NCBI GenBank assembly: GCA_045540975.1
Contig: JAZQIE010000072.1
Span: forward strand, 6,158 to 70,157
Length of the DNA stretch: 64,000 bases
Reading direction: 5' to 3'
Source of the DNA: Eubacteriales bacterium
GTDB lineage: Bacteria; Bacillota; Clostridia; Oscillospirales; JAAYXM01
Shown: positions 27,953 to 61,829 of the stretch, in pieces
Position numbering within the stretch: the first letter of the stretch is position 1
How the letters are laid out: each line of letters begins with the position of its first letter
The notes under the pieces: model-generated
Seen by the model: only the letters and a program-made list of their open reading frames with translations
Databases searched by the model: none
Told to the model about the DNA's origin: nothing
Position numbers and translations under genes: made by a program

Positions 27953-28012
27953 CTTGCAGAAACGCGCGGTTTTTGGTATGATACAAATAACGATACTTTT
28001 TTTGGTGATGAT

Positions 28013-28972: not shown

Positions 28973-29034
28973 CTTTTTCAGTTAAATCAGGACCTCCCGA
29001 AACCGTGTGAAATGCGGTAAACTAAACCTCGGAG

Positions 29035-31565: not shown

Positions 31566-31569
31566 GCGT

Positions 31570-34959: not shown

Positions 34960-35003
34960 AAAAACACTCGACTAAGGCCAACCGCCTTAGTCGAGTGTTT
35001 TTT
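34958..35003. terminator. Bidirectional terminator
   Basis: A stem of at least 14 bp, CACTCGACTAAGGC-caacc-GCCTTAGTCGAGTG, is flanked by A7 and T6. Confidence 0.9.
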
Positions 35004-35793
35004 CTTGTACAATCTCTTTTTTCTTCCACAACTCTCTCATCGCAAACGGGATGAAGAGGATTAAAAATCCGAGGGTGAGAGATTCAAGCGGAGAAAGGTC
35101 AAAAATCGCGTTTGTTTTTGGGAAGACCAGTGCAAGTCCGTGTCCCAAAAGTTCACACATCGAGAAGAACACGGAGAGCGCGCCGCTCAAGGTGGCAAGA
35201 CGGAGCTTGTTTTTCCCGAAGATGCAGCCTGTGAGCGCGTAGAAGAAGAGCACCGCGCAAACCACCGCAAAGAGCAGATAGGAATAATCGAGCAGGATGG
35301 GGTCCGCCACACGGTCACGGTAAATTAGAATCAGTGTGTAGGAAATCCAAAGCGCGGGTGCGACCGCAAAGACCGCGTAAGTTCCGCCGCTTGACGGCGC
35401 AAATCCGTTTTTGCAAAGTCCCAAAACCGCGATTGCCGCATAAAGCGAGAAGAGCGCCTGAATCAGATTGGTCATGGAGAATTCCCGCATGACCCCGTAA
35501 TACACCTGAAAGCCCGCCGAAGCAACCAGAATGAGGGCACACAGAATGCCGACAAACGGAAGGAGTGAGGCGGTGGGGCGTTCCTCCTTCGCATCGCGGA
35601 TGAAAAACGCGAGTACGGAAAGCAGCAAAAAGGTCACACCGCTTAAGATCATCAGTGCGGGGGTGGCGGCGAGGTCGCCGACATACAGCCCGGTCTTCGG
35701 GTCAAACGAGTAGGCAAGTTCGGTTGCGCGCATAAGTGCGGCGCACAGACCCAAAAACAGCGGCAGCAGGACAAACGAAAGAGTTCGTTTCAT
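34987..35793 (-). CDS. Hypothetical multi-pass membrane protein
   Basis: A 268-aa protein starting at ATG 35793 (MKRTLSFVLLPLFLGLCAAL), with about 7 hydrophobic segments. I recognise no family. Confidence 0.55.
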   Translation of the reverse strand: MKRTLSFVLLPLFLGLCAALMRATELAYSFDPKTGLYVGDLAATPALMILSGVTFLLLSVLAFFIRDAKEERPTASLLPFVGILCALILVASAGFQVYYGVMREFSMTNLIQALFSLYAAIAVLGLCKNGFAPSSGGTYAVFAVAPALWISYTLILIYRDRVADPILLDYSYLLFAVVCAVLFFYALTGCIFGKNKLRLATLSGALSVFFSMCELLGHGLALVFPKTNAIFDLSPLESLTLGFLILFIPFAMRELWKKKEIVQEKTLD

Positions 35794-35806
35794 GGAAAAC
35801 ACTCCT

Positions 35807-37259: not shown

Positions 37260-38228
37260 ATGAAACGTTTTTTTCTTCTTTGCGGCGTGCTTTGGTGTGC
37301 GGTTTTCCTCCTCCCTCTCTTCACTCCGCACGACGGGGAGACCCTGCTTTCCGCACCGATTGAGGAGGCGGAGGTGGATCGGGAAACCGAAATCACACTC
37401 CTAACCGACGGTGCGGTGGTGACCTTGCCGCTGGACGAATATCTCGCGGGTGTGGTCGCGGCGGAAATGCCTGCCCTGTTCCCCGAAGAAGCACTCAAAG
37501 CACAGGCGGTTGCGGCGCGGACATATACCATGAAGCGCGCGAGCGAAACCCCGGATTCCTCCCACAAAGGTGCAATGGTGTGTGATGACCCCAACCATTG
37601 CAAGGCGTACAATCCGATTTCCCAATTCGTTGCGAATTGGGGGGCGAGCGGAGGCGATTACGAGGAAAAAATCAAAGCCGCGGTGGAGGAAACCGACGGC
37701 GAGATTCTGCTCTATGAAGGCGCACCGATCAGCGCGGTGTTCCATTCCTCCTCCGCGAAAAGAACCGAGGCGGCGGCAGACGTGTGGGGGCGCGATGTCC
37801 CGTATCTGCAAAGTGTGGAGAGTGTGGGGGATGCGGAAGCGCCAAACTACGAGAGTACGGTGGCGGTCCCGATTGAAACCTTCAAGCAAACCGTCCGCGC
37901 TACATACAGCGGTGCGGATTTCACCGCGCATCCGCTGTTTGGGGATGCGGTGCGAAGTGATGCGGGCGGCGTGAAGACCATCCCGGTGGGGGGTGTGAAT
38001 ATTACAGGGCGCGAGCTTCGGGTATTGTTTGGACTCCGCTCCGCGAATTTCACGGTCACACAAGAGGGAGAGGATGTGGTATTCCGCACGGTGGGGTACG
38101 GTCACGGTGTGGGGATGAGCCAATACGGTGCGCGCGGTCTCGCGCTGCAGGGGATGGAGTACCGCGAGATTCTCGCGCACTATTACAGCGGCACACAGCT
38201 TGGAAAAATCGAAAAAAAAGAAGCATGA
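37260..38228 (+). CDS. spoIID: Stage II sporulation protein D (lytic transglycosylase)
   Basis: An N-terminal signal/anchor, LDEYLAGVVAAEMPALFPEEALKAQAVAARTY, VFHSSSAKRTE and GYGHGVGMSQYGA are present. Confidence 0.88.
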   Translation: MKRFFLLCGVLWCAVFLLPLFTPHDGETLLSAPIEEAEVDRETEITLLTDGAVVTLPLDEYLAGVVAAEMPALFPEEALKAQAVAARTYTMKRASETPDSSHKGAMVCDDPNHCKAYNPISQFVANWGASGGDYEEKIKAAVEETDGEILLYEGAPISAVFHSSSAKRTEAAADVWGRDVPYLQSVESVGDAEAPNYESTVAVPIETFKQTVRATYSGADFTAHPLFGDAVRSDAGGVKTIPVGGVNITGRELRVLFGLRSANFTVTQEGEDVVFRTVGYGHGVGMSQYGARGLALQGMEYREILAHYYSGTQLGKIEKKEA

Positions 38229-38255: not shown

Positions 38256-38483
38256 TTAGTCGGTAACGTACGGGAGCAGAGCGATGTGACGTGCACGCTT
38301 GATAGCGATGGTCAACTGACGCTGATGCTCAGCACAAACACCGGTCATTCTGCGCGGCAGGATCTTGGAACGATCGGAAAGATAACGGCGCAGCTTTGCG
38401 GTATCCTTATAATCGATCTGGCCAACCTTATCAACGCAGAAAGAGCAAACCTTTTTGCGCTTACGAGCTCTATTACGATCCAT
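38256..38483 (-). CDS. rpsR: 30S ribosomal protein S18
   Basis: [63 protein letters not shown]. Confidence 0.97.
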
Positions 38484-38511
38484 TACGGAATCCTCCTTTT
38501 ATAAGATAGGG

Positions 38512-38976
38512 TTAGAACGGCAGGTCTTCGTCCCCATCCAGCAGCTCTTCAAACTGAGAAGCGGCAGGAGCGGGAGCGGTACGCGGAGCGGTCGGCGCCG
38601 CGGTGCCGTAACCAAAGTTGTCCGCAGCGGGAGCACCGCCTGCGGAATCGCGCTTCGACTCTGCGAAGAAGCACTCATCGGCAACCACTTCGTAAGTGGT
38701 ACGGTTGTTGCCGTCTTTGTCGGTCCAACTACGCACCTGAATGCGGCCGGAAACCACAACCAACTGACCCTTGCGGAACCACTTGGATACAAACTCTGCG
38801 GTGTTGCGCCATGCAACGATGTTGATGAAATCAACCGTCTGCTGGCCTTCCGCAGCGTTTTTGGAGTACCCACGGTCAACCGCGAGCGAGAAGGTTGCGA
38901 CCGGGACATTGGACTGTGTGTGACGAAGTTCGGGGTCACGGGTGAGGCGACCCATCAGGATTGCTTTGTTCAACAT
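38512..38976 (-). CDS. ssb: Single-stranded DNA-binding protein
   Basis: MLNKAILMGRLTRDPELRHT...ATFSLAV and an acidic tail ending DEDLPF. Confidence 0.97.
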   Translation of the reverse strand: MLNKAILMGRLTRDPELRHTQSNVPVATFSLAVDRGYSKNAAEGQQTVDFINIVAWRNTAEFVSKWFRKGQLVVVSGRIQVRSWTDKDGNNRTTYEVVADECFFAESKRDSAGGAPAADNFGYGTAAPTAPRTAPAPAASQFEELLDGDEDLPF

Positions 38977-38988
38977 GAAAAGCCCTCC

Positions 38989-39291
38989 TTACTTGACATC
39001 GTCCTGGCAGACGATGATGGAACGCATAACGCCTTCCGTGATCTTGTAAACGCGGTCGAGTTCAGCCGGGAATGCCGGGCTGCCTTCAAACTCGATGAAG
39101 ACGTAGTAGCCTTCCGGTTTGTCGTTGATCGCGTATGCGAGACGGCGCTTACCCCACTCATCGATGTTGGTGAGGGTTGCGTTTGCCTCAACCAGAGCCT
39201 TGAACTTTGCAACAAGTTCAGCAATGGCAGTTTCTCCCAGATCAAGGTCCAGGATCATGATGGTCTCGTACTTTGCAGTGATTTTTGCCAT
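38989..39291 (-). CDS. rpsF: 30S ribosomal protein S6
   Basis: YETIMILD...WGKRRLAYAINDKPEGYYVFIEF. Confidence 0.95.
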   Translation of the reverse strand: MAKITAKYETIMILDLDLGETAIAELVAKFKALVEANATLTNIDEWGKRRLAYAINDKPEGYYVFIEFEGSPAFPAELDRVYKITEGVMRSIIVCQDDVK

Positions 39292-39352
39292 TTGTTACAC
39301 CTCCTTTTGGACGTTTGGCCCCCACGACGTGGGAGCAAGGATACAAAGTTAT

Positions 39353-39380
39353 ATTATATTGATTTTTATAAAAAAGTCAA
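39353..39380 (-). promoter_or_regulatory. Strong sigma-A promoter of the rpsF-ssb-rpsR operon
   Basis: On the minus strand: TTGACT (39380-39375), a 16-nt spacer and TATAAT (39358-39353). The roughly 55-nt leader contains a CCCAC-gtc-GTGGG hairpin. Confidence 0.7.
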
Positions 39381-39397
39381 GAGTTTTTTATAAAAAG

Positions 39398-40848: not shown

Positions 40849-43800
40849 TTAGCCTTCCTTTGCCGCAACATGGATTTTCAAGATGTAAGTTCTTGTTGCG
40901 CCGCTTTCGGAACGAACGACCACGGAAACCGAGGTAACCGATTCCTTTTTCTCGTCGTAGGAGACCGGGATGTGGCTTGAGGTCGCACCGTTGGATACCA
41001 TGAAATTCTTTACCGTGATGGTGACACGGGAATCCTTGGCAACCGGGGTGACCGTGATGTGGTCGGTGTAGCCGATGTAGAGGTCATAAACGTCTTGATC
41101 CGGTAAGAGTTCAACCGGATACTGGCCGTCATCCGGCACGTTGACCGTCAGGGATTCCAATGCGGTTTCGGTAGAGGTGCGATCGGTGGTAAAGGTGATG
41201 TCGCGCGTGGTGGAATTTCCGCTGGCATCCACAAAGGTTGCGGAAACAATGTAGTCGGTGCCCTCAGCGAGGTTTCTCAACGGAATCGACTTGGTGCCCG
41301 CCTTGTTGGGGATGAAGCCGGAAAGCGCGGTCTTTGCGGTGCTGTCGCCCGCCTTCTTGTAGGAGATGGAGAGCGTACCGACCGTACTGTAAGCCGCCTC
41401 AACGGTTGCGCTGTCTTTGGTGATATCGGTTGCAATCAAATCAAACGAGAGGGTTGAGGTGGAGAAGGCAAGCATCTTCTCGGCTGAGGTACGTCCCGCG
41501 GCATCCTTCACGGTTGCAATCGCGGTGTAATCGGTTCTCGGTGCAAGACCGGTAAAGGTCATGGAGGTTTGTCTGCCCGCGGTGACCGCAACCGTCTGAC
41601 TCAACGGGGTCTGCCCCGGTGCGGAGAGCTTGACGGTGATGTTGCCGGTGACATTGGCGGTTGCGTACAAATCCACGGTAGAGGTGGATGCACTTCCCAC
41701 AGACAGGGCGCTGACACGCGGTGTGCCGTCTGTGACACGGAAGTATGAGGTGGTCTGCGGGATTGCTTTGTTGGTCGCATACTGCAGCGCATAACTCTCA
41801 ATGCGCAGGTAGTATGTGGTGTTGGCGTCGAGTTCTTCATCCGGCAGGATGGTCACGGTGCGCTTGTCCGAGCTGATATCTGCGGAGAAGGTCACCAGTG
41901 TGCCGGAAGAACTGCCGCGGCGCAGGGTAATCACATCGGATTCCAGATAACGCGCATCCACGGTACCGCCGCCGTAACGGTATACCGCATTGTCGAAGGA
42001 AATGGTCAATGCAGGATTTACGGGAACGTCTTCTGCTCCGTTTTCCGGCTCAAAGCGGATGTCCGAACCTGTGATAGAGGCGCCGGTGGAGAAGCGTGCA
42101 ACATAGCGCGGATTGGTGTGTCCGTCTTTGTCGGACAAGGTATCGCGCGGGATAATGACATAGTAGGTGGTGTCGCTCTTGAGCCGTTCGGACGGGGTGA
42201 TGGAGAAAATATCCTTATCGTAGTTGAGCGAGACCGAGAACGGAACCAAAGGACCGGTTGCACTGTTCTCGCGCAGTTCAAGGCAGCTGTTTTCCACATA
42301 AGAGGAGCTGAGGGTTGAACCGGTGGTGCGGAAGAGGGTGTCCTTAAAGGTGAGACGGATGACGATTTTCTCGCTGACATTGGTCTTTCCGTCCGCAGGA
42401 CTCATGGTCGGAATGAGGGAGGACATATCGTAACTGCCCTCATTTTCCTCGTCATCGGTGGTGAAAATCGAGTACATCCGTGCGTTACTTTCGCCGTCTT
42501 CGTTGTAGACGGTATCCGAAACGAAAACAATGTAGTAACGGGTGTCGGGTTCTAAATATTCATCCGGAGAGATGGTGATGACACTCTTGTTCGAATTAAG
42601 GGTTGCGGTAAACGGAACCGCGTATCCGGTCAAGCTTCCTTCACGAAGCTCCACCGCGGTGTTTTCGATGTAATCGGTGGTGAGTGCCGCGCAAGCCGCG
42701 GAACGGAAGACCGTATCTTCAAAGGTCAGACGGATGGTGGGCTCGAGGGAGATGCCGATCGCACCGTTTCTCGGATAGAAGGAAGGCGTGAGCGAAGCGG
42801 TGGGCTCGTCTTCCTCGTAGTTGTTGTCGTTGTTATTGTTGTTATTATCGTCCTCGTCATCGTTTGAGCCGCCGCCAACCACCGAGATGGGACGGTTTTC
42901 GTAGGTCACGTTTCCGCCGCTTTCATATGCGGTCTGAATCGAGCCGTTTCCTGTGAAGTCCGCGCTTGCCTTGATGTACGCGGTTTTGATGGAAACGCCG
43001 TCAGCCAGCGAAATCGAGGAATCCTTTGCCGCGCTTTCCAAATCGAAACGGTCAATGGTGCCTGCCTGCAGCATCAGGGTCACACGGTCGGAAACCGTAA
43101 ACTGCGAGATGGTGCCGCCGGTCGCTTTGATGACCGTGCTTTCGGAAAGGGTGACCGATTTGAAGCTGCCGAGCAAACGTACCGTATCGCTTGCGAGACC
43201 GGTACCGTTCATCTCAACCGTGTCAAAGCCTGCACCCGAGAGGGTGACACCGTTTTTCACGACGGTCTTGGTCACGTAAGAGGTGCCCGAGAGGGAAACC
43301 TTTGCTTCACCGGACACGGAGGATGCCACCAGATTGTTGACACCGGTATTTTTGAGGTTGACGGTGGAATCCAAACCGCCGCTTGCGGTCAAAGTACCGA
43401 GGATACGGCAGGAGTTGAAGGAAATCGCACCGTTTGCAACCGCTTCGGTGATGGTGACATTGTTCGGATAAATGGTGTTGTAATAAGAAGAGTCAACCAC
43501 CGAGAAGGATTGGCTGGAGGATGCGATGATTTCGTTTTTGAGCACTTCATAGAGAATCTTTGCGGCTTCCGCGCGGGTGAGTGCCGCTTTCGGGCGGAAG
43601 TTGTTGTTTTTATCACCCAGCATATAGGTCTTTGCCGCCATCTTTGCGACAGAAGCACCTGCCCAGGGGTCGATGGTGGCGCTGTCTTGAAACGCGGTAG
43701 TTCCCGCAACCTCAGGCTCGGTCACAATACGGGCGAGCATCACCGCCGCTTCCTGACGGGTGATGTTGCGATTTGCACCGAAGGTGTTGTCCGCATAGCC

Positions 43801-44133
43801 GGAGATATAGCCTGCGGAAACCGCCTTGCGGACCTCGTTGTAGAACCAGTCGCTCGACTTTATGTCGCTAAACGAAACGGTTGCGGAATGATTGATGCCG
43901 AGCGCGGTGTTCACCATCTTGGAGAACTCCGCACGGGTCACCGTTTTATTGGGAAGGAAGGTACCGTCGGTGTACCCCGAGATATAGCCTGCGGTGACAC
44001 CATAATTGATATACTCCTCTGCCCAATGCCCTTTGATATCGGAAAGGCTTGCGGCAGATACGGCAGGAAGCATGCTGATGACCAGCACGAGTGCCAAAAG
44101 AAATGCGGATACACGGATTCTGTTTTTCTGCAT
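40849..44133 (-). CDS. Large cell-surface protein: signal peptide, 3 SLH domains, beta-rich region, Asn/Asp linker, 3 Ig-like (SbsA/Big_5-type) repeats, 2 Fn3-like modules, C-terminal cadherin-like beta-sandwich
   Basis: The signal peptide is MQKNRIRVSAFLLALVLVISMLPAVSA. There are three FSDIK/FQD...W....V..........G....F.P....TR.E SLH units (aa 28-200). Three repeats of about 115 aa share L(T/R)(F/I)xF(E/K/D)(D/N)x(V/L)(F/Y)R...TxYY(I/V/L) (aa 445-803). Confidence 0.85.
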   Translation of the reverse strand: MQKNRIRVSAFLLALVLVISMLPAVSAASLSDIKGHWAEEYINYGVTAGYISGYTDGTFLPNKTVTRAEFSKMVNTALGINHSATVSFSDIKSSDWFYNEVRKAVSAGYISGYADNTFGANRNITRQEAAVMLARIVTEPEVAGTTAFQDSATIDPWAGASVAKMAAKTYMLGDKNNNFRPKAALTRAEAAKILYEVLKNEIIASSSQSFSVVDSSYYNTIYPNNVTITEAVANGAISFNSCRILGTLTASGGLDSTVNLKNTGVNNLVASSVSGEAKVSLSGTSYVTKTVVKNGVTLSGAGFDTVEMNGTGLASDTVRLLGSFKSVTLSESTVIKATGGTISQFTVSDRVTLMLQAGTIDRFDLESAAKDSSISLADGVSIKTAYIKASADFTGNGSIQTAYESGGNVTYENRPISVVGGGSNDDEDDNNNNNNDNNYEEDEPTASLTPSFYPRNGAIGISLEPTIRLTFEDTVFRSAACAALTTDYIENTAVELREGSLTGYAVPFTATLNSNKSVITISPDEYLEPDTRYYIVFVSDTVYNEDGESNARMYSIFTTDDEENEGSYDMSSLIPTMSPADGKTNVSEKIVIRLTFKDTLFRTTGSTLSSSYVENSCLELRENSATGPLVPFSVSLNYDKDIFSITPSERLKSDTTYYVIIPRDTLSDKDGHTNPRYVARFSTGASITGSDIRFEPENGAEDVPVNPALTISFDNAVYRYGGGTVDARYLESDVITLRRGSSSGTLVTFSADISSDKRTVTILPDEELDANTTYYLRIESYALQYATNKAIPQTTSYFRVTDGTPRVSALSVGSASTSTVDLYATANVTGNITVKLSAPGQTPLSQTVAVTAGRQTSMTFTGLAPRTDYTAIATVKDAAGRTSAEKMLAFSTSTLSFDLIATDITKDSATVEAAYSTVGTLSISYKKAGDSTAKTALSGFIPNKAGTKSIPLRNLAEGTDYIVSATFVDASGNSTTRDITFTTDRTSTETALESLTVNVPDDGQYPVELLPDQDVYDLYIGYTDHITVTPVAKDSRVTITVKNFMVSNGATSSHIPVSYDEKKESVTSVSVVVRSESGATRTYILKIHVAAKEG

Positions 44134-44775: not shown

Positions 44776-47541
44776 CTATGCGTATGTCTTTACAATGTTG
44801 AGCAGCATTCTGTCCGCAAAGGGATGTGTCCCAAGTGCCTCGTCGATGCGGAAGGAGTTGAGCACATATCGGCGGTTTCCGCGCCCGTATTCCCCAAACG
44901 CAAGCCCGGGGGTGGTGAAGCCGGTATCCACGCGGATGCCTGCACAAACCGAACGGTCGGGCTTTTTGATATCGCAGAAAATCACACGCGGGCAGAGAAT
45001 CCCGAGCTTGTCCGACTCGATAAGTCCCGCGCGGTTGATGTGTTCAAACACGGGATGCGGTCGGTTTAGATAATCGTGATGATAGATGCTGCCCACCGAA
45101 CGGCGGACATATGCCTCTTCCCCTGCAATGCGCTTTAAAAACGCCTCGTGTTCTTTGAAATATTCCGCATCAAGGAACACCGCGGTCCCACCTGCGGAAA
45201 CAAATGCTTCGATGAGCACCTCGTCCGCCCCTCTGCCGCAAAGCACAAGGGATTCTTTGGAGTTTGCCGTAAGCGGAGAGACCGTCACCCCGTGTTCGGT
45301 GAGGAAACGGCATACCGCGTCCGACACATCGCACACTGCAACCCTTGCCGCGAGCATGTCGTCTGTTGAATGAACGGTGAATTTCAAATCCCCGTCGTAT
45401 GCGACATTGCCGCTGAGGAGCCGTACCGAGAATACATACTCGCCTGCGGGGAGGGTAAGGGTCTCGTTGAGTGCGGGATGCGCGAGCGGAGGAAGACCCC
45501 CATACCCGTGTGCGGGATAATCGACTGTAAAATCCTTTTTCCAAACACAGCCGTATTCCCCCATGACATACGCCTGCGCCCAATAAACGCCGGGTGCGAG
45601 CACATCCTCGTTGCAAAGCACGGCGGAGAGTTCAAAGGGGGTTTCGGCATACACCGTGCGGTCAGAACTGAACAATGCCCACCGCAACGGCTCGTGCCCC
45701 TGCTGGATGGCATAGGCAAGGGATTCTTTGATGACCCCGTTGCCCTGCAAAATCCCCTCGTGGCTTGCGCCGAAGCTGGTAAATCCCAATCCGTTGATTT
45801 TGGGGTTCGAGCGGAATATGTTATAAAGATGCGTGCGCTGAATACCGTTGAGTTTTTCTGTCGCACGGCTCAGGTCACAGGCAAGGGGGCACACCTCGCG
45901 CAAATCATAGAAATCGAGGAATTCCTCCACCTCGTCCCAAAGCTTCTTGGCAACCGAGAGCGGCTGAACATCGCAGAGGGCTTTGCCCTCGTTTTTCAAA
46001 TACTGCCCCATCACGTCAAATTGCGATCCGATGCCGAATTCACTCACAAATACGGGTGCGGTGTCGCGCCCGATCTTGCGAAGATAGTCACGAAACCACG
46101 GTTCAATCGGGACGGGGAGGTAGATATGAACGTCACCCATTGCGGGGTCCTGATACCCGTCCATATCCCGCGGATGCTCGCGGTTGGGGAAGTCCAAAAC
46201 CCCTTCTGCGCCCAAAAACGTGTCCCACTCAACAGATCCCGGGTTGGACGCGCTGCCAAGGGAAATATCCCGATCCCAGCGCCCGCTGTGGAGCAAAAAC
46301 AACGCGTCCGGTGCAAGCGCGCGCAGTTTCGGAAGCGCCTCGGAGTAGCAGGAAAAAACCTCGGGCCGATTTTCCAGTTCATTGACCAGATAATACGCCG
46401 CAACACACGGATGATTGCGGTGCTTTCGGATGATATTCTCGTTGCAGTCTTCAATTTGCTTGCGGGTGTTTTCGTGTAAAAACATCCCCCAGCCCGTTGC
46501 CCCTGCATCCAAAACCAAAAGCCCAATCTCGTCGCAGATTCCGAAGAGTTCTTCGGGGAACTCGCGCGTGATGGTGCGGATGGCGTTAAATCCCAGCGCC
46601 TTCATAGCAATGGCGCTTGATGCGGACGGGTTGGTGTGCGCGCCTTTGAGCAGAATCCGCTTTCCGTTTAAGAAAAAGAATCCGTCTTTGATGCGGAAAT
46701 CCTTGAATCCGAAATTTGTTGTGAGGTGTGCGGCGTTGTCTACACACACCGTAGCGAGATACAAAAACGGTGCATCGAGTTCCCATAACTGCCGGTTTTC
46801 GACCCCACCGTCAAGGACAAACTCGGACGTTCCCGACGGAATGTCAAACAAGCCGCGGAGCTGCCCCACCTCGGCACCGCCCTTTTTTGCGGAAATCAGC
46901 ACGGAGATTTCCTTGGTGCAGGGCGCACCGTCGTTTTTCACGGTCACCGTGACCGAAACCTTACCGCTGTCCGCAAAAGGACGTACATAGACCTCCTCCG
47001 CGCGCACTTCGGGTACCGCGCGCAGACGCACGTTGCCCAAGATTCCGCCGACACATTCCAGACAAGTCGCCTCGTCTGCGCCGAACATGAAGCCCTGAAT
47101 CGATGCAAAGCAACCGTTGGGGATTTTCCAAAGCTCGATTCCCTCAATCGGCTCACCGTTCTGACGCGGCTCAAAGCATTGTACGACCAAGCGGTTTTCA
47201 CCGTTTGGTCGGTATGCTTCCGTGGCGTCGAAATAAAAACTCTGCTCGTGTTGGGCGTGCTCACCGAGAAAAACACCGTTGAGCCATGCACGGCACAGAT
47301 ATGCCACGCGCTCAAATTCCACCAGCACGCGCTCGCCCGTATCTGCGGCAAGCGTTCCGTCAAACACTTTGGAATACCATACAAACCCGTGATACCCGGG
47401 GAATACAGTGGCATAGATAGAATCGAGCATCCAGGAGTGATGGTTGGGAATGTGGTCAAAAATCTCGATTTCCGCCTCTGCCGTATGCGGTGTCTTTGCG
47501 AGCTTCCAAGTGCCGCAAAGTGAAAGCATTTTGTTCTTCAT
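44776..47541 (-). CDS. Glycoside hydrolase family 2 protein (921 aa)
   Basis: An N-terminal GH2 sugar-binding pattern (LCGTWKL...VFPGYHGFVWYSKVF...AWLNGVFLGEH) and a TIM region (GFNAIRT...HPCVAAYYLVNE) are present. Specificity is unknown. Confidence 0.75.
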   Translation of the reverse strand: MKNKMLSLCGTWKLAKTPHTAEAEIEIFDHIPNHHSWMLDSIYATVFPGYHGFVWYSKVFDGTLAADTGERVLVEFERVAYLCRAWLNGVFLGEHAQHEQSFYFDATEAYRPNGENRLVVQCFEPRQNGEPIEGIELWKIPNGCFASIQGFMFGADEATCLECVGGILGNVRLRAVPEVRAEEVYVRPFADSGKVSVTVTVKNDGAPCTKEISVLISAKKGGAEVGQLRGLFDIPSGTSEFVLDGGVENRQLWELDAPFLYLATVCVDNAAHLTTNFGFKDFRIKDGFFFLNGKRILLKGAHTNPSASSAIAMKALGFNAIRTITREFPEELFGICDEIGLLVLDAGATGWGMFLHENTRKQIEDCNENIIRKHRNHPCVAAYYLVNELENRPEVFSCYSEALPKLRALAPDALFLLHSGRWDRDISLGSASNPGSVEWDTFLGAEGVLDFPNREHPRDMDGYQDPAMGDVHIYLPVPIEPWFRDYLRKIGRDTAPVFVSEFGIGSQFDVMGQYLKNEGKALCDVQPLSVAKKLWDEVEEFLDFYDLREVCPLACDLSRATEKLNGIQRTHLYNIFRSNPKINGLGFTSFGASHEGILQGNGVIKESLAYAIQQGHEPLRWALFSSDRTVYAETPFELSAVLCNEDVLAPGVYWAQAYVMGEYGCVWKKDFTVDYPAHGYGGLPPLAHPALNETLTLPAGEYVFSVRLLSGNVAYDGDLKFTVHSTDDMLAARVAVCDVSDAVCRFLTEHGVTVSPLTANSKESLVLCGRGADEVLIEAFVSAGGTAVFLDAEYFKEHEAFLKRIAGEEAYVRRSVGSIYHHDYLNRPHPVFEHINRAGLIESDKLGILCPRVIFCDIKKPDRSVCAGIRVDTGFTTPGLAFGEYGRGNRRYVLNSFRIDEALGTHPFADRMLLNIVKTYA

Positions 47542-48556: not shown

Positions 48557-49381
48557 ATGGAAGAGATTGTGCTTTCTCACTCCGCTGTCGGTGTAGACGG
48601 CATTCGCTATCGGCTGAGCCATTCGGATGAATATTACGAGCACAACGCGGCAAAGAGCGTGGATTCGCACATCCACAGCTGTACCGAGTTGTATTTGAAT
48701 CTTTCCGGGGACGTGTCGTTTTTGGTGAAAAACGCGGTCTATCCCATCCGCCGCGGAGATCTTGTAATCAGCCGCGCAAGTGAACTGCACCATTGTATGT
48801 ATCACTCCTCCTGTATCCACGAGCATTTCTGTCTGTGGATTGAGGAGCGCGCGGACGGGCTGCTTTCGTTCTTGGATTCCGAGGAGAGACACCATGTGCG
48901 CCTTTCACCGCGTGTGGCGGAGGAGTTGATTGCGCTGTTTTGCGCGGCACACACCGCCATGGTGCAAAACGATGCGATGGCGGCAAGCACGTACCTGATG
49001 CGGATACTGCTGATGCTTCGGGATAACCGTACACAGCCGTGTGAGAAGTGTGAGGAGACTCTGCCGCGGGACGTACAGCAGGTTGTGGACTACATCAATC
49101 TCAAATACGGCGAGATTACAAACATTCGCCGTGTGGCAGAGAAATTTTTCATCAGCCCGTCCACACTCAACCGCAGGTTTGCAAAGCACTTGCATCTCTC
49201 ACCCAAGGAGTATCTGGAATCCGTCAAACTTTCCAATGCCAAACGAATGCTGGACGAGGGGAAGAGTGTGACTCGCGTCTGTTTTCTGTGCGGATATGCG
49301 GATTCCTCGCATTTCATCCGCAATTTCAAAAAGAAATTCCATATCACACCGCATCAATATAAAGCGAGGGGTGGATCCTAA
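48557..49381 (+). CDS. AraC family transcriptional regulator
   Basis: A cupin-like N-terminus (HIHSCTELYLNLSGDVSF) and an AraC HTH (VTRVCFLCGYADSSHFIRNFKKKFHITPHQY) are present. The ATG at 48557 is 7 nt after GGAGGAGG. Confidence 0.85.
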   Translation: MEEIVLSHSAVGVDGIRYRLSHSDEYYEHNAAKSVDSHIHSCTELYLNLSGDVSFLVKNAVYPIRRGDLVISRASELHHCMYHSSCIHEHFCLWIEERADGLLSFLDSEERHHVRLSPRVAEELIALFCAAHTAMVQNDAMAASTYLMRILLMLRDNRTQPCEKCEETLPRDVQQVVDYINLKYGEITNIRRVAEKFFISPSTLNRRFAKHLHLSPKEYLESVKLSNAKRMLDEGKSVTRVCFLCGYADSSHFIRNFKKKFHITPHQYKARGGS

Positions 49382-49878
49382 TCGGACCCACCCCATGTTC
49401 TTGCTCCCAAAATGTGGAGATAGCGCATATCCGCCGCGTTGTAGGAATCCAGTCTGCGCAGGAAGGAATCCGCCGAGTGGGACGCGATGTAAATCCTTCC
49501 GCGCCGAAGCGCAACCACCACCAAGGTGTGATACAGCCGACCCGAGTCATCCGCAAGCTGGACAATGTCCCCCGGAAGAAGGGCTTCGCGCTCAACCTCT
49601 TCGGCAAACGGCCCAACCCCTGTGTTGGAAAGGAGAAAATCGGATAAAAACCGCGCCCCCGTCCAGGAGGGTGAGCGCTGATTGATGTCGATGTAATACC
49701 AGCCGAAGGTGGGTGTGAAATTCATCACGCCGCATCCTGCGTAAATGCATTGTGAGGCAAAATTCGTGCAATCTCCGCCCAAATCATCGAAATTATAATA
49801 GCGCGGATTGCGGGCGTATGCCCATTTTCGCGCGTAAAACACCGCGGCTTCGCGGTCATAGGGAAGTTCTGTCGTCAT
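49378..49878 (-). CDS. Putative amidase-domain protein (PF12671-like, NlpC/P60-related Cys hydrolase)
   Basis: YDREAAVFYARKWAYARNPRYYNFDDLGGDCTNFASQCIYAGCGVM matches the putative amidase domain pattern. The stop codon overlaps the convergent AraC stop (CTAA). Confidence 0.7.
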   Translation of the reverse strand: MTTELPYDREAAVFYARKWAYARNPRYYNFDDLGGDCTNFASQCIYAGCGVMNFTPTFGWYYIDINQRSPSWTGARFLSDFLLSNTGVGPFAEEVEREALLPGDIVQLADDSGRLYHTLVVVALRRGRIYIASHSADSFLRRLDSYNAADMRYLHILGARTWGGSD

Positions 49879-49921
49879 AAAAAATCACTCCGATGTAATC
49901 TATGCGATTCATCGGAGTGAT
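49879..49921 (-). terminator. Terminator of the CDF gene whose 3' arm carries the Shine-Dalgarno sequence of the next gene
   Basis: On the minus strand: ATCACTCCGATG, a 14-nt loop, CATCGGAGTGAT, TTTTTT, then ATG (49878). The perfect 12-bp stem spans 49884-49895 and 49910-49921. Confidence 0.8.
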
Positions 49922-49928
49922 GTTCTTT

Positions 49929-58455: not shown

Positions 58456-59862
58456 CTATTCAACCGATTGATCTGCAAAGGCTGCCGCATTTGCCGCGCG
58501 CTTGCGCCAAGCACCGCGGCGGAAGACAATGTAGGAAATCAGCGCGCCCATGCTCCACGAAACGAGAAGCGAGGTAAAGGGGGCCGCGGGGTGTCCGTTT
58601 ACAAAGTCGGGCGAGCGAGTGAGATATGCAAGCCCGTACGCCACCGGAATACGAAGCAGCACCGTGGTAATCAAGGTAATCCACATCGGCGTGACCGTAT
58701 CACCCGCACCGCGCATGATTCCGCCGAGTACCTGTGTCACCGCGATACAGAGATATCCGAATGCCAGAATCCGCATCATGCGTACCGCGAGGTCCATGAG
58801 CGCAGGCGTGTCGGTAAAGAGGTCAAAGAGGAAGTGCCCGAAGAAGAGCAAAATCACGGTGATGACCGCCGAAGTACCCACCGCCATGGCAAGTCCCTGT
58901 TTGAGTCCGCGGTCCACGCGGTCCATACGGTTTGCACCCACGTTCTGACCCGTGTACACACTCATTGCCTGCCCGAAGGTCATATTCGGCATCATTGCAA
59001 AGCCGTCCACACGCATAATCATCACGTTGCACGCCATGACCATCTCACCCATACTGTTGGTGAGCGACTGTACCACCAGCATCGCGATTGACATAATGCC
59101 CTGGGTGAGTCCCGAGGGAATGCCCAGATTGATGATGCGCATGGTGATGTCTTTTTGCAGACGGAGATTGGGCCAAGTCATATCAAACACATCGCGCATT
59201 TTAAGGAGCTTGATAAAGCACAAAATCGCGGAGATAAACTGCGCAATAATGGTTGCAAGCGCAACACCCGGAACACCCATGCCAAATCCCGCGACAAACC
59301 AAACGTCGAGTACAATGTTCAACACGGTCGCAACCAAAAGGAAGGCAAGCGCGGAGAACGAGTCACCCATACCGCGCAGAATTCCCGAGAGAATATTATA
59401 GAAGGTGAAGCCTGCCGCACCGAGGAAGAAAACAATCAGATACTCGGCGCACCAGTCGATGATGGAAGCGGGCGTGCCGAGTAAGTTCAGCAGCGGCCGT
59501 GCCAAAAGTGTTCCCACCACCATGACAAAAATCGATGCAATCGCGGAAAGGGTGATGCAGTTTCCGATTGAGCGGGAGAGACCGTCGCGGTTTTCCGCAC
59601 CATAGTACTGGGAAATCACAATCCCCGCACCCGTCGAAAGCCCGACAAACAGGGCAAGCAGAAGGTTGATAATCGGCATCGAGGTACCAACCGCGGCAAG
59701 CGCGTTGTCGCCCACATATTTTCCGACCACAATCGAGTCCACCGTGTTGTACAGTTGCTGTGCGAGGTTTCCGATGAGCATTGGCACGGCAAATTCCGCA
59801 ATCCGTTTCCATGGCGCGCCTTCTGTCATATCGCGCGCCGAAAAAAGTTCTTTCAGTCGCAT
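58456..59862 (-). CDS. MATE family efflux transporter
   Basis: A 468-aa, 12-TM protein. The N-terminus is PWKRIAEFAVPMLIGNLAQQLYNTVDSIVVGKYVG. Confidence 0.88.
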   Translation of the reverse strand: MRLKELFSARDMTEGAPWKRIAEFAVPMLIGNLAQQLYNTVDSIVVGKYVGDNALAAVGTSMPIINLLLALFVGLSTGAGIVISQYYGAENRDGLSRSIGNCITLSAIASIFVMVVGTLLARPLLNLLGTPASIIDWCAEYLIVFFLGAAGFTFYNILSGILRGMGDSFSALAFLLVATVLNIVLDVWFVAGFGMGVPGVALATIIAQFISAILCFIKLLKMRDVFDMTWPNLRLQKDITMRIINLGIPSGLTQGIMSIAMLVVQSLTNSMGEMVMACNVMIMRVDGFAMMPNMTFGQAMSVYTGQNVGANRMDRVDRGLKQGLAMAVGTSAVITVILLFFGHFLFDLFTDTPALMDLAVRMMRILAFGYLCIAVTQVLGGIMRGAGDTVTPMWITLITTVLLRIPVAYGLAYLTRSPDFVNGHPAAPFTSLLVSWSMGALISYIVFRRGAWRKRAANAAAFADQSVE

Positions 59863-59925
59863 AAAAGTCTCCTTCGTTTTTGGAATATCTTTTTAATTAT
59901 AACACAGATTGTTTCAAAACGGAAC

Positions 59926-59952
59926 ACCTCAAATGTTCTTTTGCATATCCTA
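59926..59952 (+). promoter_or_regulatory. Possible sigma-K-type (late mother-cell) promoter
   Basis: AC (59926-59927), 16 nt, then CATAtccTA (59944-59952). This fits the B. subtilis sigma-K consensus AC-N16/17-CATAnnnTA. It lies 43 nt upstream of the DUF11 ATG. The motif is short and degenerate. Confidence 0.3.
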
Positions 59953-59994
59953 TACCGAGGGGAATACCTCATCACTTTTTTTGGAGGGACAAGA

Positions 59995-60846
59995 ATGGCG
60001 ACTTTTGTAAACTATGCCACTCTTTCTTATGACGGCGGCAGCACTGTGTCCAATACGGTCACGGGCGAAATTTTAGACACCCTTGCGGTGACCAAAACCG
60101 CGGTCATTGACGAGTACACCCAAGACGGCAGTGTCACCTATGTGGTGACCTTGGTTAACAGCGGCACCGCGCCGCTTACCAATCTCACCCTGACCGATGA
60201 CCTCGGCGGTTATCCGTTTGATGCATCGACCGTATATCCGCTTGCACTCATTCCGAATTCGGTGCGCTACTACGTTGGCGGCGTACTGCAGCCCGACCCC
60301 ACCGTGGTGGCGGGGCCGCCGATGACCGTGACGGGCATCAGCGTTCCTGCGGGCGGCAATGCAACCTTAATTTATCAAACCGACGTGACCGCGTTTGCAC
60401 CTGTGCAGAGTGCATCCGAAATTACAAACACGGTCTCGGTCACGGGCGGAGGACTCGCAGATGCGGTCACCGCATCCGAAACCGTCACCGCGCGTGAAGG
60501 CACCGCACTCACCATTACCAAAACCCTTTCTCCGTCGGTGGTCTCCGCAAACGGGGAAATCACGTATACCTTCGTGATTGAAAACACGGGCAATACCCCT
60601 GCGGATGCAACCGACAATTTGGTGGTCACCGACGTGTTCGACCCGATTCTGTCCAACCTCACCGTTACCTACAACGGCGGCGTATGGACTTTGGGTACCG
60701 ACTACACCTACGATGCGGCAACCGGCACCTTTACCACCACAGCCGGGCAGATTACCGTACCTGCCGCAACCTACACCCAAAACGCGGACGGAAGCTACAC
60801 CACCGCGCCCGGTATTGCGGTCATCACGGTCACAGGCACCGTATAA
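59995..60846 (+). CDS. DUF11 ('conserved repeat domain') protein, two beta-sandwich repeats, no signal peptide
   Basis: The two DUF11-like units are LAVTKTAVIDEYTQDGSVTYVVTLVNSGTAPLTNLTLTDDLG and LTITKTLSPSVVSANGEITYTFVIENTGNTPADATDNLVVTDVFD. The N-terminus MATFVNYATLSYDGG is not hydrophobic. GGAGGG lies 7 nt before the ATG. Confidence 0.7.
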   Translation: MATFVNYATLSYDGGSTVSNTVTGEILDTLAVTKTAVIDEYTQDGSVTYVVTLVNSGTAPLTNLTLTDDLGGYPFDASTVYPLALIPNSVRYYVGGVLQPDPTVVAGPPMTVTGISVPAGGNATLIYQTDVTAFAPVQSASEITNTVSVTGGGLADAVTASETVTAREGTALTITKTLSPSVVSANGEITYTFVIENTGNTPADATDNLVVTDVFDPILSNLTVTYNGGVWTLGTDYTYDAATGTFTTTAGQITVPAATYTQNADGSYTTAPGIAVITVTGTV

Positions 60847-60902
60847 CAAGCGCTCTTGTTTTCTTTGGCGGGGGATGTTATACTCAATAAGAGGTGAAAC
60901 AA

Positions 60903-61829
60903 ATGAATTTTGTAAAATCCGCGATTTTCGGACACGCCGTGGCAGATGCCCTCGGTGTACCTGCCGAGTTCAAAACCCGCGAGGAGTTAAAGCGAAACCC
61001 GATTACCGATATGGTGGGATATGGGGCATACCCGGTGCCGAAAGGCTCATGGTCGGACGATGCCACCATGATGCTCTGCACCTTGAAAAGCCTTGCGGTG
61101 CATGGCGAGGTTGTTTTGGAGGATATCATGTCGCGCTTTGTCCGTTGGGTGGGGGAAGGATATATGACCCCACACGGCGAGCTTTTTGATATCGGCCGCA
61201 CCTGCCTTGTCGCCATCCGCAGATTTGCAAGCGGCTATTCCGTCAAAGAATGCGGTTGTGACGGGCATTTCGATAACGGAAACGGCTCGCTCATGCGCAT
61301 CATCCCCATCTCGCTCTATCACCATATCAAAGGAATCTCGGGCGAGGCTGCAATCGATGAGATTTTCGCGGTGAGTGCGCTCACCCATGCCCATGAGCGC
61401 GCTTGTGTTGCTTGTGGGATTTACGATACCGTCTTGCGCGAGCTCATCGCCGCCCCGTGCCGTGAGTCTGTTTTCTCCGGACTCAAAAAAGCAGAAGCGC
61501 GGTTTGAAGGCTTTTCCGAGCTTGACACCTACCATCGCATTTTTGCGGAAGCCTTTGCGGAAACCGCGGAGGAGGAAATCAACAGCAGCGGATATGTGGT
61601 GGATACCTTGGAAGCCGCGCTTTGGTGCCTTCTCACCACCGAGAATTACCGCGACTGTGTGCTCAAAGCGGTAAACTTAGGCCGCGATACCGATACCACC
61701 GCCGCGGTTGCGGGCGGTCTTGCGGGCGTGCTGTACGGCTTTGATGCCATCCCGCGCGAGTGGGTAGAAGCCCTTGCTAAGACCGACGAAATCTCTGCCA
61801 TGTGCGGCGCTTTCGTGCAAAAACTGTAA
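60903..61829 (+). CDS. ADP-ribosylglycohydrolase (ARH/DraG) family protein
   Basis: IFGHAVADALGVPAEFKTREEL, GSWSDDATMMLC, GNGSLMRI and GRDTDTTAAVAGGLAGVLYG (the di-metal-site Asp/Thr cluster) are present. Confidence 0.85.
   Translation: MNFVKSAIFGHAVADALGVPAEFKTREELKRNPITDMVGYGAYPVPKGSWSDDATMMLCTLKSLAVHGEVVLEDIMSRFVRWVGEGYMTPHGELFDIGRTCLVAIRRFASGYSVKECGCDGHFDNGNGSLMRIIPISLYHHIKGISGEAAIDEIFAVSALTHAHERACVACGIYDTVLRELIAAPCRESVFSGLKKAEARFEGFSELDTYHRIFAEAFAETAEEEINSSGYVVDTLEAALWCLLTTENYRDCVLKAVNLGRDTDTTAAVAGGLAGVLYGFDAIPREWVEALAKTDEISAMCGAFVQKL

Follow-up and report, generated by a model that had tools for sequence, protein, structure and literature searches.

A leaderless, register-shifted CLIPPER/DUF11 protein of gut Clostridia: a probable spore-surface component and possibly a self-crosslinking fibre subunit

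The gene near the end of the window (the whole 64-kb stretch of DNA analysed here) encodes a 283-aa protein which, judging from its sequence, looks like a tandem adhesin stalk that has been cut inside a domain and not between domains. The product probably builds a very tough structure on the spore surface, and this may be a spore fibre of a new kind that crosslinks itself. Its family is large and bears no annotation beyond “DUF11 domain-containing protein”; members are almost always of about 283 aa, and a relative is present in at least 516 GTDB species genomes. The family shares the same domain content, the same shift of the domain register, a set of nearly invariant residues, a leaderless start, and an upstream promoter followed by a hairpin. 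The gene, the elements next to it and the parts of its product are as follows.

59995..60846, + strand: coding sequence of the leaderless two-domain CLIPPER/DUF11 protein (ATG 59995, stop 60844-60846)
59983..59988, + strand: GGAGGG as ribosome-binding site, ending 6 nt short of the ATG; most related loci have a GGAG-type sequence in this position
60845..60866, + strand: weak, putative terminator-like hairpin AACAAG-CGCT-CTTGTT, then TTCTTT, read from the sequence and below the scan threshold
59995..60069, + strand: N-terminal arm (MATFVNYATLSYDGGSTVSNTVTGE, residues 1-25), related by homology to the two final strands of a CLIPPER domain; proposed donor strands
60082..60492, + strand: domain 1, a full CLIPPER domain (residues 30-166) that has the triad K34 (60094-60096), D68 (60196-60198) and N145 (60427-60429)
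60508..60843, + strand: domain 2, residues 172-283, a CLIPPER domain without the two final strands, with K176 (60520-60522) and D213 (60631-60633); proposed acceptor

The frame is a genuine coding sequence of 283 codons plus a stop, giving a protein of 28.9 kDa with a pI of 4.05. A preliminary description of this DNA, made from the letters alone, had called the product Thr/Val/Gly/Asn-rich and free of Cys, which is correct for Thr (56), Val (35), Gly (27) and the lack of Cys but not for Asn, with 14 residues only; alanine is also abundant (29). There are only two lysines, K34 and K176, and two is also the mode of the family. Strong hairpins follow the stop codon in many relatives, and an Rfam search of the leader and gene found no known RNA family.

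The same description had seen no signal peptide, lipobox or sortase motif, and we agree: LPXTG, a lipobox and Cys are all absent, the N-terminus has no hydrophobic segment (the Kyte-Doolittle maximum over 11 residues within the first 40 is 1.2), and the first 25 residues include no basic residue. The protein thereby lacks the signal peptide and the sorting or anchor motif of a fibrillar adhesin, and a Pfam search found only CLIPPER-type domains in it. One may object that it is just a fragment of an ordinary secreted DUF11 adhesin whose true start and signal peptide were missed, as the reading frame in the window stays open upstream to TTG 59755, over 80 codons that include a hydrophobic stretch. 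This upstream stretch, however, overlaps the divergent MatE gene and houses the promoter region, the hairpin and the ribosome-binding site, and 221 of the 222 full-length relatives begin at the same Met without any extension, while in 46 of 81 loci the frame is closed by a stop no more than 20 codons before the start. Because of the shared Met and the upstream stops, a start further upstream that adds a signal peptide is excluded for the family, and we find the fragment reading barely credible.

At E<1e-30 the relatives fall into about 250 clusters (50% identity), nearly all of 280-290 aa and aligned from residue 1. The loci examined are confined to Clostridia, namely Oscillospiraceae, Acutalibacteraceae, Ruminococcaceae and Lachnospiraceae, and each locus and each assembly examined had a single copy. 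Culturable carriers include Clostridium sp. OM02-18AC, Roseburia lenta NSJ-9 and Vescimonas sanitatis MH37-1. The gene is solitary, and its surroundings vary between species: no conserved neighbouring gene was found across 83 loci, where neither a phage gene nor a sporulation gene recurs, and a search of nearby ORFs for the arm motif returned no further carrier and no anchor, tip or partner gene. An ADP-ribosylglycohydrolase gene does lie 56 nt downstream in the window, starting at 60903 as had been described, but it is not among the gene families that recur beside the gene in other loci; both this gene and the MatE gene are incidental neighbours. Some longer relatives were considered as natural fusions and set aside: P0147 and P0259 look like chimeric or mis-called ORFs, and P0182, with a low-complexity insert between its domains, is uninformative.

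The variable genomic location, together with two unannotated ‘Bacteriophage sp.’ contigs from human faeces that encode a relative of 51-61% identity, could point to a structural protein of a phage or mobile element, with Ig-like domains serving as decoration or fibre parts. These two contigs are however the only matches among 50,697 phage records, both of them short (7.6 and 9.5 kb); this scarcity and the lack of recurring phage neighbours led us to reject a phage origin as highly improbable, and the single copy per locus and assembly and a conserved promoter of host sporulation type argue against it as well.

The product had been described as consisting of two DUF11 units. Both HMMs score above their cut-offs over two stretches, DUF11/PF01345 of Pfam with 41.3 bits (cut-off 24.6) and TIGR01451 with 31 bits (cut-off 24), and DUF7507/PF24346 matches also; what these stretches represent, however, is a register-shifted pair and not two whole domains. 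CLIPPER stalks, which belong to the same domain family by HMM (PF01345; CLIPPER_2/DUF7507, PF24346) and likewise have a CnaA-like beta-sandwich, contain a Lys-Asn isopeptide with an Asp catalyst shown crystallographically in 9IFR (PMC12617251), and their Lys on the first strand, Asn on the penultimate strand and catalytic Asp match those of the 283-aa protein in position. By analogy with K715/D748/N806 of 9IFR (PMC12617251), K34, D68 and N145 of domain 1, conserved in 219, 218 and 216 of 222 relatives, would constitute an isopeptide triad and would be expected to form the bond. CLIPPER adhesins are long secreted proteins with a signal peptide, an adhesive head, a sorting or anchor signal and complete domains, whereas the 283-aa protein is leaderless, carries no sorting signal and has shifted domain boundaries.

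Domain 2 retains the Lys and the Asp (K176 in 221 and D213 in 218 of the 222) and has no conserved Asn partner: beyond residue 213 the 222 members conserve neither N nor D nor E. It stops about 4 residues before the position where the Asn is expected, and exactly the same end is found in 180 of the 222. Its Asn strand, with N6 and A8, appears to have been relocated to the N-terminus, and N6 is the only candidate Asn. The arm carries N6 (60010-60012), A8 and the invariant S19-N20, which are found in 220 (N6), 221 (A8), 221 (S19) and 222 (N20) of the 222 relatives. The spacing from Lys to Asn is 111 within domain 1, and 113 when the count runs from K176 past the C-terminus and on to N6 of the next copy. 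When the protein is compared by BLASTP with a tandem CLIPPER array (a 4208-aa protein), its sequence from residues 3-6 onward corresponds to the end of the preceding repeat and continues without interruption through K34. This comparison carries the argument for the homology of the arm; when a profile of the arm is set against one of the two final strands of domain 1, N6 also falls in register with N145 (E=0.014), over segments too short for meaningful statistics. The protein combines an incomplete acceptor fold with a terminal extension homologous to the missing strands, as donor-strand polymers do, and its linkers between domains, at 4-5 residues, do not differ from those of tandem stalk arrays, which are elongated.

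Three elements are recognised in the region before the gene.

59924..59927, + strand: sigma-K-type -35 element ACAC, its AC at N18 or N16 from CATA (cACc at 59925-59928)
59944..59952, + strand: sigma-K/sigma-E-type -10 element CATATCCTA (CATAnnnTA), ending 42 nt before the ATG
59957..59970, + strand: short hairpin GAGG-GGAAUA-CCUC, obtained by folding, lying at or just after the predicted 5′ end of the mRNA (about 59955-59960)

A sigma-70 scan of 59700-61000 confirmed that there is no good sigma-A promoter, and the AC-N16-CATA sequence proposed earlier as a sigma-K match is indeed present. It is one base short of the canonical mACm-N16-CATAnnnTA (equivalent to AC-N17), so the strict pattern has no match at this site, where the spacing is N16 or N18, and the sole strict match elsewhere in the window lies just upstream of an Amidase_6 gene. 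At the family level, the comparison of upstream sequences strongly supports the idea of a sigma-K promoter. CATAnnnT occurs in 72 of 81 proximal upstream regions of related loci as against 7-9 in controls, with the CATA mostly 49-59 nt before the start codon. The complete AC-N16-18-CATAnnnT is found in 56 of the 81, compared with none in far-upstream and reverse-complement controls and about one in shuffles; 39 loci have the canonical N17 spacing, and the family consensus is kcAC with AC-N17. When 71 loci are anchored on CATAnnnT, an A stands at -19 in 42 and a C at -18 in 53 (1.0 bit), with about 0 bits at the other upstream positions, and this AC emerges whichever anchor is used. Taken as a family, the loci display the -35 AC and the -10 CATAnnnT of sigma-K regulon promoters about 17 nt apart, at a fixed distance from the start codon in most of the 81 and amid flanks and neighbourhoods that are not conserved. 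Following the -10 element, the next 30 nt in 62 loci fold with a mean of -8.4 kcal/mol versus -3.5 in upstream and shuffled controls (p about 1e-11), while the stem sequences differ from locus to locus, and this hairpin is a probable mRNA-stabilising stem-loop.

Many Clostridia lineages of the carrier families have sporulation programmes, and “non-spore-forming” often means for gut Clostridia that spores have just not been observed. The organism of the window carries spoIID, as previously noted (SpoIID at 37260-38225, a TIGR02870 equivalog with 311 bits against a cut-off of 235), and sigK is absent from the 64-kb window. The conserved promoter, the leaderless M1 start kept throughout the family and this bona fide spoIID considerably strengthen the original suggestion of a spore-surface or appendage subunit, against which stand the non-consensus spacing in the window and the case of Vescimonas, which carries the gene and the promoter (loci L011, L017 and L041) although V. 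coprocola has been described, and the genus predicted, as non-spore-forming (PMC11334427). Together with the end of the -10 element, which is TG in 49 loci, with G the commonest last base, and TA in 18, unlike the TA of Bacillus subtilis sigma-K, and with the lack of a linked sporulation gene, Vescimonas could indicate that the protein is no spore component at all but is made under another sigma factor or in another state (stationary phase or stress, for example) and works in or on vegetative cells, perhaps as a scaffold in the cytoplasm or as a surface protein released by lysis or non-classical export. We consider this improbable given that the family motif includes both halves of the sigma-K consensus at canonical spacing, that the loci examined are restricted to Clostridia lineages, that the organism of the window has spoIID, and that a leaderless protein of isopeptide domains has no evident cytoplasmic role.

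We propose, with a confidence just short of even, that the 283-aa product is made late in the mother cell, polymerises head-to-tail as each subunit donates strands to the next, and is locked by an autocatalytic isopeptide between K176 and N6. The sigma-K-type promoter would give a stand-alone transcript late in sporulation, in the mother-cell cytoplasm, if its presumed dependence on sigma-K holds. Domain 1 would staple itself by a K34-N145 isopeptide with D68 as the catalyst, and the N-terminal arm of one subunit would enter the open domain 2 of the next by donor-strand complementation, where the acceptor K176 and the donor N6 would react autocatalytically with D213 as the catalytic Asp. The product would be an uninterrupted covalent chain of Ig-like domains, made without sortase, chaperone or export, and this chain could form a fibre or lattice on the spore surface as an appendage, exosporium or outer coat. 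We also suggest, as a tentative proposal held at somewhat below even confidence, that such a natural tag and catcher in one chain amounts to an unrecognised class of endospore fibre, spread over the at least 516 mostly uncultured gut species of the four families named above. A K176-N6 bond formed within one molecule would block polymerisation.

The AlphaFold2 monomer model has a pLDDT of 96.6 and a pTM of 0.82, and model and structural matches together point to a CnaA-like Ig sandwich. The arm is modelled with pLDDT 87-95 as four short broken strands (3-6, 9-12, 15-18 and 22-25), while the equivalent place in domain 1 holds two long strands (142-151 and 158-166); the fairly high confidence of the arm in the monomer model could mean self-complementation. 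A natural fragment without the arm reaches a higher pTM of 0.87, and the orientation of the two domains therefore appears independent of the arm. With the armless model, the best Foldseek matches are integrin alpha chains, whether bent, half-bent or open (TMq 0.44-0.50), and sortase pilins. We read the integrin match as the extended leg (calf-1/calf-2), bearing in mind that the aligned integrin domains are not reported, and on this reading the two domains would lie end to end, so that the arm would be unable to reach its own domain 2. Whole-chain matches in the PDB do not exceed TMq 0.50 for either model, a search with the family profile gave no PDB sequence at E<=0.01, and by both routes no solved filament of the leaderless 283-aa family was found in the PDB copy searched.

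The main rival to polymerisation is that the arm of this late-sporulation protein folds onto its own domain 2, which would make the protein a circular permutation and, after the K176-N6 reaction, a cyclised monomer. Doubly cross-linked and nearly free of Lys, such a monomer would withstand heat and proteases extremely well and serve as a building brick of coat, crust or exosporium, joined to its neighbours non-covalently or through other cross-links. Engineered isopeptide cyclisation with SpyTag/SpyCatcher raises thermal resilience, which we count in favour of this reading. The arm is modelled as beta-strands with the confidence given above, it is present at a high effective concentration on its own chain, no anchor or tip partner was found near the loci, and the conservation data fit complementation within the chain equally well. 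Nevertheless we judge the cyclised monomer somewhat unlikely. The short linkers are those of elongated tandem arrays, the domain orientation is rigid without the arm and the pTM falls once the arm is added, and the strands of the arm are broken, unlike the long pair of domain 1. Since bent and open integrins match alike, an end-to-end tandem is suggested here too, although the matched integrin domains are not reported, and a stable two-domain monomer alone needs no register shift. The arm-independent orientation and the extended-tandem reading are hints from the models that favour donation of the arm to a neighbouring subunit.

Precedents exist for DUF11 proteins on spores, and the statement in the preliminary description that no DUF11 protein has such a role was wrong. 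Within the appendage locus of Clostridium taeniosporum, 4 of 9 proteins carry DUF11 and the promoters are of sigma-K consensus; the major subunits are P29a/P29b (269 aa), with the related CRD1/CRD2, and the source leaves unstated which four carry DUF11 (PMC5749712). CrdA/B/C of the Bacillus cereus group are cited there as DUF11 spore proteins (PMC5749712), and a predicted F-ENA anchor of Clostridium aceticum, F-Anchor-3, has four DUF11 domains (PMC12357932). The ribbon-appendage subunits of C. taeniosporum resemble our protein in size (269 versus 283 aa), and they are structural parts of a spore appendage with very high late-sporulation expression. Their genes, however, form a 9.6-kb cluster with collagen-like glycoproteins while the 283-aa gene is alone, and C. 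taeniosporum is a low-GC Clostridium sensu stricto, unlike the organism of the window.

The endospore appendages (ENA) of Bacillus offer a second comparison. In S- and L-ENA the covalent locking is by disulfides. The ENA folds are unrelated to that of the 283-aa protein, being a jellyroll in S-/L-ENA (DUF3992), a head-neck fold in F-ENA (DUF4183) and an alpha-hairpin in A-ENA, and our Pfam search of the product gave no match to PF13799 (DUF4183) or DUF3992 at E<=0.1. The Bacillus subunits are likewise leaderless mother-cell proteins, that assemble by themselves, each engaging the following subunit with an N-terminal connector, hook or latch, and that are locked covalently (PMC12357932, PMC13111695, PMC11362473). 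A-ENA, or ‘sporesilk’, forms autocatalytic intermolecular Lys-Asn/Gln/Glu isopeptides, and a SigK site precedes a-ena by about 46 bp (PMC13111695); the lock proposed here would instead be the isopeptide native to an Ig-like domain that is split.

Head-to-tail donor-strand assembly of an incomplete beta-sandwich is also known from Sulfolobus threads (PMC9715654), Clostridium perfringens BsaA (PMC11580942), B. subtilis TasA (PMC9674648) and chaperone-usher pili, and the threads and BsaA add intermolecular isopeptides. Each of these is exported, assembles extracellularly and uses another fold, and in none is the donor strand the Asn strand of a CnaA-type isopeptide domain. Sortase pilins (BcpA, EbpB, GBS80 and RrgB) and the C-domains of Antigen I/II, which are among the top structural matches, are tandem Ig-like proteins with internal isopeptides that form covalent fibres; sortase pilins, however, require a signal peptide, LPXTG, a pilin motif and a sortase, all of which are absent here. 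In SpyTag/SpyCatcher, the reactive strand is split from an isopeptide domain, and its docking restores the fold and produces a spontaneous Lys-Asn/Asp bond between chains. Split domains of this type are laboratory constructs made from CnaB2, whereas the split proposed for the 283-aa protein would be natural and CnaA-type, with both tag and catcher on each chain, which would yield polymers.

Covalent linkage between chains without a sortase has so far been known for Ig-like domains in engineering (SpyTag/SpyCatcher), and for unrelated folds (A-ENA and archaeal threads). If the proposal is true, this would be the first case in nature of an Ig-like isopeptide domain divided between chains for sortase-independent covalent polymerisation, and a small self-ligating module free of Cys and nearly free of Lys would be useful for biomaterials. 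It is as spores that many strictly anaerobic Clostridia of the gut withstand oxygen and move from host to host, yet for the dominant Oscillospiraceae and Lachnospiraceae, most of them uncultured, the spore surface is almost uncharted. If our reading is right, the conserved promoter would be usable as a marker for late mother-cell genes in gut Clostridia, and the 283-aa family would offer a concrete and very widespread candidate for a component of their spore surface.

In the protein encoded by the gene under study, Thr, Val, Ala and Gly are abundant, Cys and His are absent, and there are only two Lys. The two DUF11 stretches claimed in the preliminary description are confirmed by HMM (PF01345, 41.3 bits against a cut-off of 24.6 in Pfam; TIGR01451 in NCBIfam), and DUF7507/PF24346 is also matched in Pfam. 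PF01345 and PF24346 were renamed CLIPPER and CLIPPER_2 in newer Pfam releases, and judging from these HMM matches the protein belongs to the CLIPPER/DUF11 family.

Features of the gene and its surroundings
59995-60846, forward strand: coding sequence, ATG at 59995, stop codon at 60844-60846; 283 aa, 28.9 kDa, pI 4.05
6 nt 5′ of the ATG, forward strand: ribosome-binding site GGAGGG
59957-59970 (region 59953-59975), forward strand: leader hairpin GAGG/CCUC, from folding
Neighbours (Pfam): divergent MatE transporter; ADP-ribosylglycohydrolase 56 nt downstream, as first described; AraC regulator

A sequence scan of the protein found no signal peptide, lipobox or LPXTG motif, which bears out the absence of an export signal reported earlier. 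Its reading frame is open upstream as far as 59755 in the window; despite this, the leaderless start is judged to be real from family comparison, because the same Met is the start in 221 of 222 full-length relatives and the 20 codons upstream of it include a stop codon in 46 of 81 loci. On the same counts we rejected a missed signal peptide added by an upstream in-frame start, a case that the preliminary description had raised.

More than 5,800 relatives were returned by a word-indexed search, and nearly all of the best 120 are exactly 283 aa long. When 50%-identity representatives were searched exhaustively, 252 clusters scored E<1e-30; nearly all measure 280-290 aa, with alignments that start at residue 1 and extend to the end. 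Relatives are encoded in at least 516 GTDB species genomes. Among the best 80, which belong to Oscillospiraceae, Acutalibacteraceae, Vescimonas, Ruminococcaceae and some Lachnospiraceae, gut or rumen metagenome-assembled genomes predominate, and a few carriers are cultured (Vescimonas sanitatis MH37-1, Roseburia lenta NSJ-9, Clostridium sp. OM02-18AC). Sources name relatives only as “DUF11 domain-containing protein” or “uncharacterized repeat protein (TIGR01451 family)”. In one relative, P0147 (703 aa), the family module runs straight into the apparent start of another protein (“MAFGGGG...”), and in another, P0259 (454 aa), an unrelated N-terminal half is fused to it; each of these ORFs seems to be either a chimera or mis-called. 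In a further relative, P0182 (352 aa), the two domains are separated by an inserted stretch of ~70 residues with abundant Ala, Gln, Gly and Met. Full-length members with 61% and 51% identity also lie on MT837146.1 and MT836612.1. These two short contigs from human faeces, labelled “Bacteriophage sp.” and unannotated, are probably pieces of bacterial DNA filed as phage by mistake; a phage origin of the gene was rejected.

No neighbour gene family recurs beyond local synteny across 83 loci, and no paralogue was found within the window; the gene stands alone.

Other features of the window
670-5166: gyrB and gyrA at the window start, an arrangement typical of origin-proximal regions
17944-22917: maf-mreC-PBP2-minD cell-shape/division cluster
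23400-24494: malate/L-sulfolactate dehydrogenase-like gene, adjoining the following trio
24538-27418, reverse strand: three genes in a row, each Amidohydro_2 (PF04909)
27809-32385: rhamnose utilisation cluster (AraC/RhaS-like regulator, rhamnulokinase, L-rhamnose isomerase, class II aldolase)
34987-35940, reverse strand, and 38455-39393, forward strand: ORFs of >300 aa flanking citrate synthase and spoIID, candidate genes with no Pfam match at E<=0.001
40849-44133, reverse strand: 1094-aa protein combining SLH domains with two Big_5 Ig-like domains; a probable S-layer or cell-wall-anchored surface protein
44776-47541, reverse strand: the next large ORF, with a weak glycoside hydrolase family 2 match

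Our promoter scan found no sigma-70-type promoter for the gene, in agreement with the earlier remark that a good sigma-A promoter is lacking. The sigma-K-like site proposed in its place exists and its motif is conserved across loci, but its spacing is AC-N16-CATA, or N18 with the adjacent AC, and a scan with the strict pattern mACm-N16-CATAnnnTA misses it. We regard the cross-species comparison of upstream regions as the decisive evidence for a putative sigma-K-type promoter. Of 81 upstream regions, 72 contain CATAnnnT (controls, 7-9), usually 49-59 nt 5′ of the start codon. When loci are anchored on this element, the only informative upstream positions are A at -19 (42/71), C at -18 (53/71, 1.0 bit) and G at -1, and the derived family consensus is kcAC-N17-gCATAnnnT(G/A). 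The sigma-E consensus has an ATA-type -35 element, and we take the family consensus to be that of sigma-K, not sigma-E. The full motif AC-N16-18-CATAnnnT is present in 56 of 81 loci, compared with none in far-upstream or reverse-complement controls and ~1 in the shuffle; the result holds with near-identical regions removed (52/74). The N17 form accounts for 39 of 81 loci against 0.4 expected.

A hairpin lies directly 3′ of the -10 element, near the expected transcript start, in nearly every one of the family loci from other species (L001-L083). Its stem sequence varies from locus to locus, and the mean folding energy after the -10 element is -8.4 kcal/mol vs -3.5 in controls (p ~1e-11); no Rfam family was found in the leader and gene region. 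The hairpin may act as a 5′-terminal stabiliser of an abundant late mRNA, or possibly as a regulator-binding site.

Just one site in the window fits the strict sigma-K consensus: AACA-N16-CATAGATTA (49878-49924, reverse strand), ~20 nt 5′ of the ATG of a 166-aa Amidase_6 (PF12671) gene (49378-49878). A perfect 11-bp inverted repeat (TCACTCCGATG / CATCGGAGTGA) flanks the -10 element of that gene and takes in its ribosome-binding site GGAGTG.

The SpoIID reported earlier for this organism passes the equivalog cut-off. A non-sporulation role for the family seems unlikely to us, and its main basis is Vescimonas, where three loci (L011, L017, L041) carry both the gene and a CATA-type promoter: V. 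coprocola was described, and Vescimonas predicted by Traitar/PhenDB, as non-spore-forming (PMC11334427). Descriptions of that kind often mean no more than that spores went unseen; in Vescimonas either sporulation is cryptic or the promoter is used differently.

Residue conservation was read first from 50 aligned diverse members and then from a 222-member alignment. In domain 1 (residues ~30-166), K34, D68 and N145 are conserved in 219, 218 and 216 of the 222. They are predicted to form a complete intramolecular isopeptide triad, because they are analogous to the K715-N806 isopeptide and its catalyst D748 in the CLIPPER crystal structure 9IFR (PMC12617251). Domain 2 (172-283) conserves K176 (221/222) and D213 (218/222), with no conserved Asn, Asp or Glu past residue 213 in the 222-member alignment. 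The chain ends ~4 residues short of the expected Asn position, exactly after the strand “LxVTGTx” in 180/222 members. The N-terminus, M-A-x-F-T-N6-x-A8-T-L-S-Y, resembles the domain 1 strand I-T-N145-T-A, and N6 (220/222) and A8 (221/222) are conserved.

The piece missing from domain 2 thus sits at the N-terminus of the same chain: the protein is an adhesin-stalk segment severed in the loop that precedes a domain's Asn strand, and not between domains. This reading rests on the mirrored strand, BLASTP and agreeing spacings. Against a 4208-aa tandem CLIPPER protein, BLASTP matches residues 3-6 onward to the end of the preceding repeat and continues unbroken through K34 and both domains, in several array registers. 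N6-K34 spans 28 residues and N145-K176 31, while K34-N145 spans 111 and the path from K176 past the C-terminus to N6 in the next copy spans 113. Profile-profile comparison also placed N6 on N145, in segments too short for statistics. The “two DUF11 units” of the preliminary description therefore hold as two HMM stretches, but their domain boundaries are register-shifted, with the Asn strand at the N-terminus.

Within this arm (residues 1-25), S19 (221/222) and N20 (222/222; window 60049-60054) are essentially invariant and are not matched in the linkers of ordinary tandem CLIPPER arrays; they could serve as a second cross-link, turn or interface. G24 (60064-60066) is listed with them among the arm residues of note.

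AlphaFold2 modelled the protein as all-beta from the 50-sequence alignment (pLDDT 96.6, pTM 0.82), the arm forming four short strands (pLDDT 87-95). P0154, a natural armless fragment, gave pLDDT 97.5 and pTM 0.87; the relative domain orientation is therefore predicted with confidence independently of the arm, whose addition lowers global confidence. Foldseek matched isopeptide-containing Antigen I/II C-domains, the sortase pilins BcpA, EbpB, GBS80 and RrgB, and integrin alpha chains (TMq <=0.46 for the full-length and <=0.50 for the armless model), and no PDB sequence matched the family profile. Integrin scores are alike for bent, half-bent and open forms, and the output does not give the aligned domains; from these similar scores we take the match to be the conformation-invariant, extended calf-1/calf-2 pair, which would place the two domains end to end. 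In such a layout the arm would leave the far end of domain 1, with its own domain 2 out of reach. This is an indirect hint against the serious rival to complementation between chains, namely complementation within one chain, giving a cyclised, doubly stapled monomer that would still be a late-sporulation structural protein; we hold it possible, if doubtful.

Going beyond the sequence features of the family, we propose that complementation occurs between chains. Sigma-K would transcribe the gene late, in the mother cell, and isopeptides K34-N145 and K176-N6 would form spontaneously, the latter between chains as the arm of subunit i+1 completes domain 2 of subunit i. The outcome would be a continuous, covalently linked tandem-CLIPPER rod in which this protein keeps no free lysine; it would be deposited on the spore, either as appendage fibres or as a lattice on its surface.

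SpyTag/SpyCatcher uses, by design, the same isopeptide chemistry in trans that we propose here. Lacking signal peptide, head and anchor, the protein is not a fibrillar adhesin. It is no member of the HMM-defined families DUF3992 and DUF4183 of Bacillus endospore appendage (ENA) fibres, and A-ENA has a different fold. It is like ENA fibres in being leaderless and in its proposed N-terminal connector and covalent lock; A-ENA has autocatalytic intermolecular isopeptides and a SigK site 46 bp upstream (PMC13111695; PMC12357932). Donor-strand filaments with isopeptides, the arrangement proposed for our protein, are found in archaeal threads and C. perfringens BsaA. The preliminary description was wrong that DUF11 proteins have no established part in spores. 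In the C. taeniosporum appendage locus, which has sigma-K consensus promoters, the major subunits P29a/P29b and the related CRD1/CRD2, DUF11 occurs in 4 of 9 proteins, and the same source cites CrdA/B/C of the B. cereus group as spore proteins with DUF11 (PMC5749712). Four DUF11 domains are also present in the predicted F-ENA anchor of C. aceticum (PMC12357932).

Spore-surface proteins that self-assemble and are locked covalently are already known, as are Ig-domain proteins with isopeptides; neither a leaderless register-shifted CLIPPER protein nor a CLIPPER-based spore fibre was found in the CLIPPER survey or in full-text literature searches. The proposed mechanism is testable with a single recombinant protein, and it concerns a very large family that has no annotation past its domain name and is carried by ecologically dominant gut bacteria.
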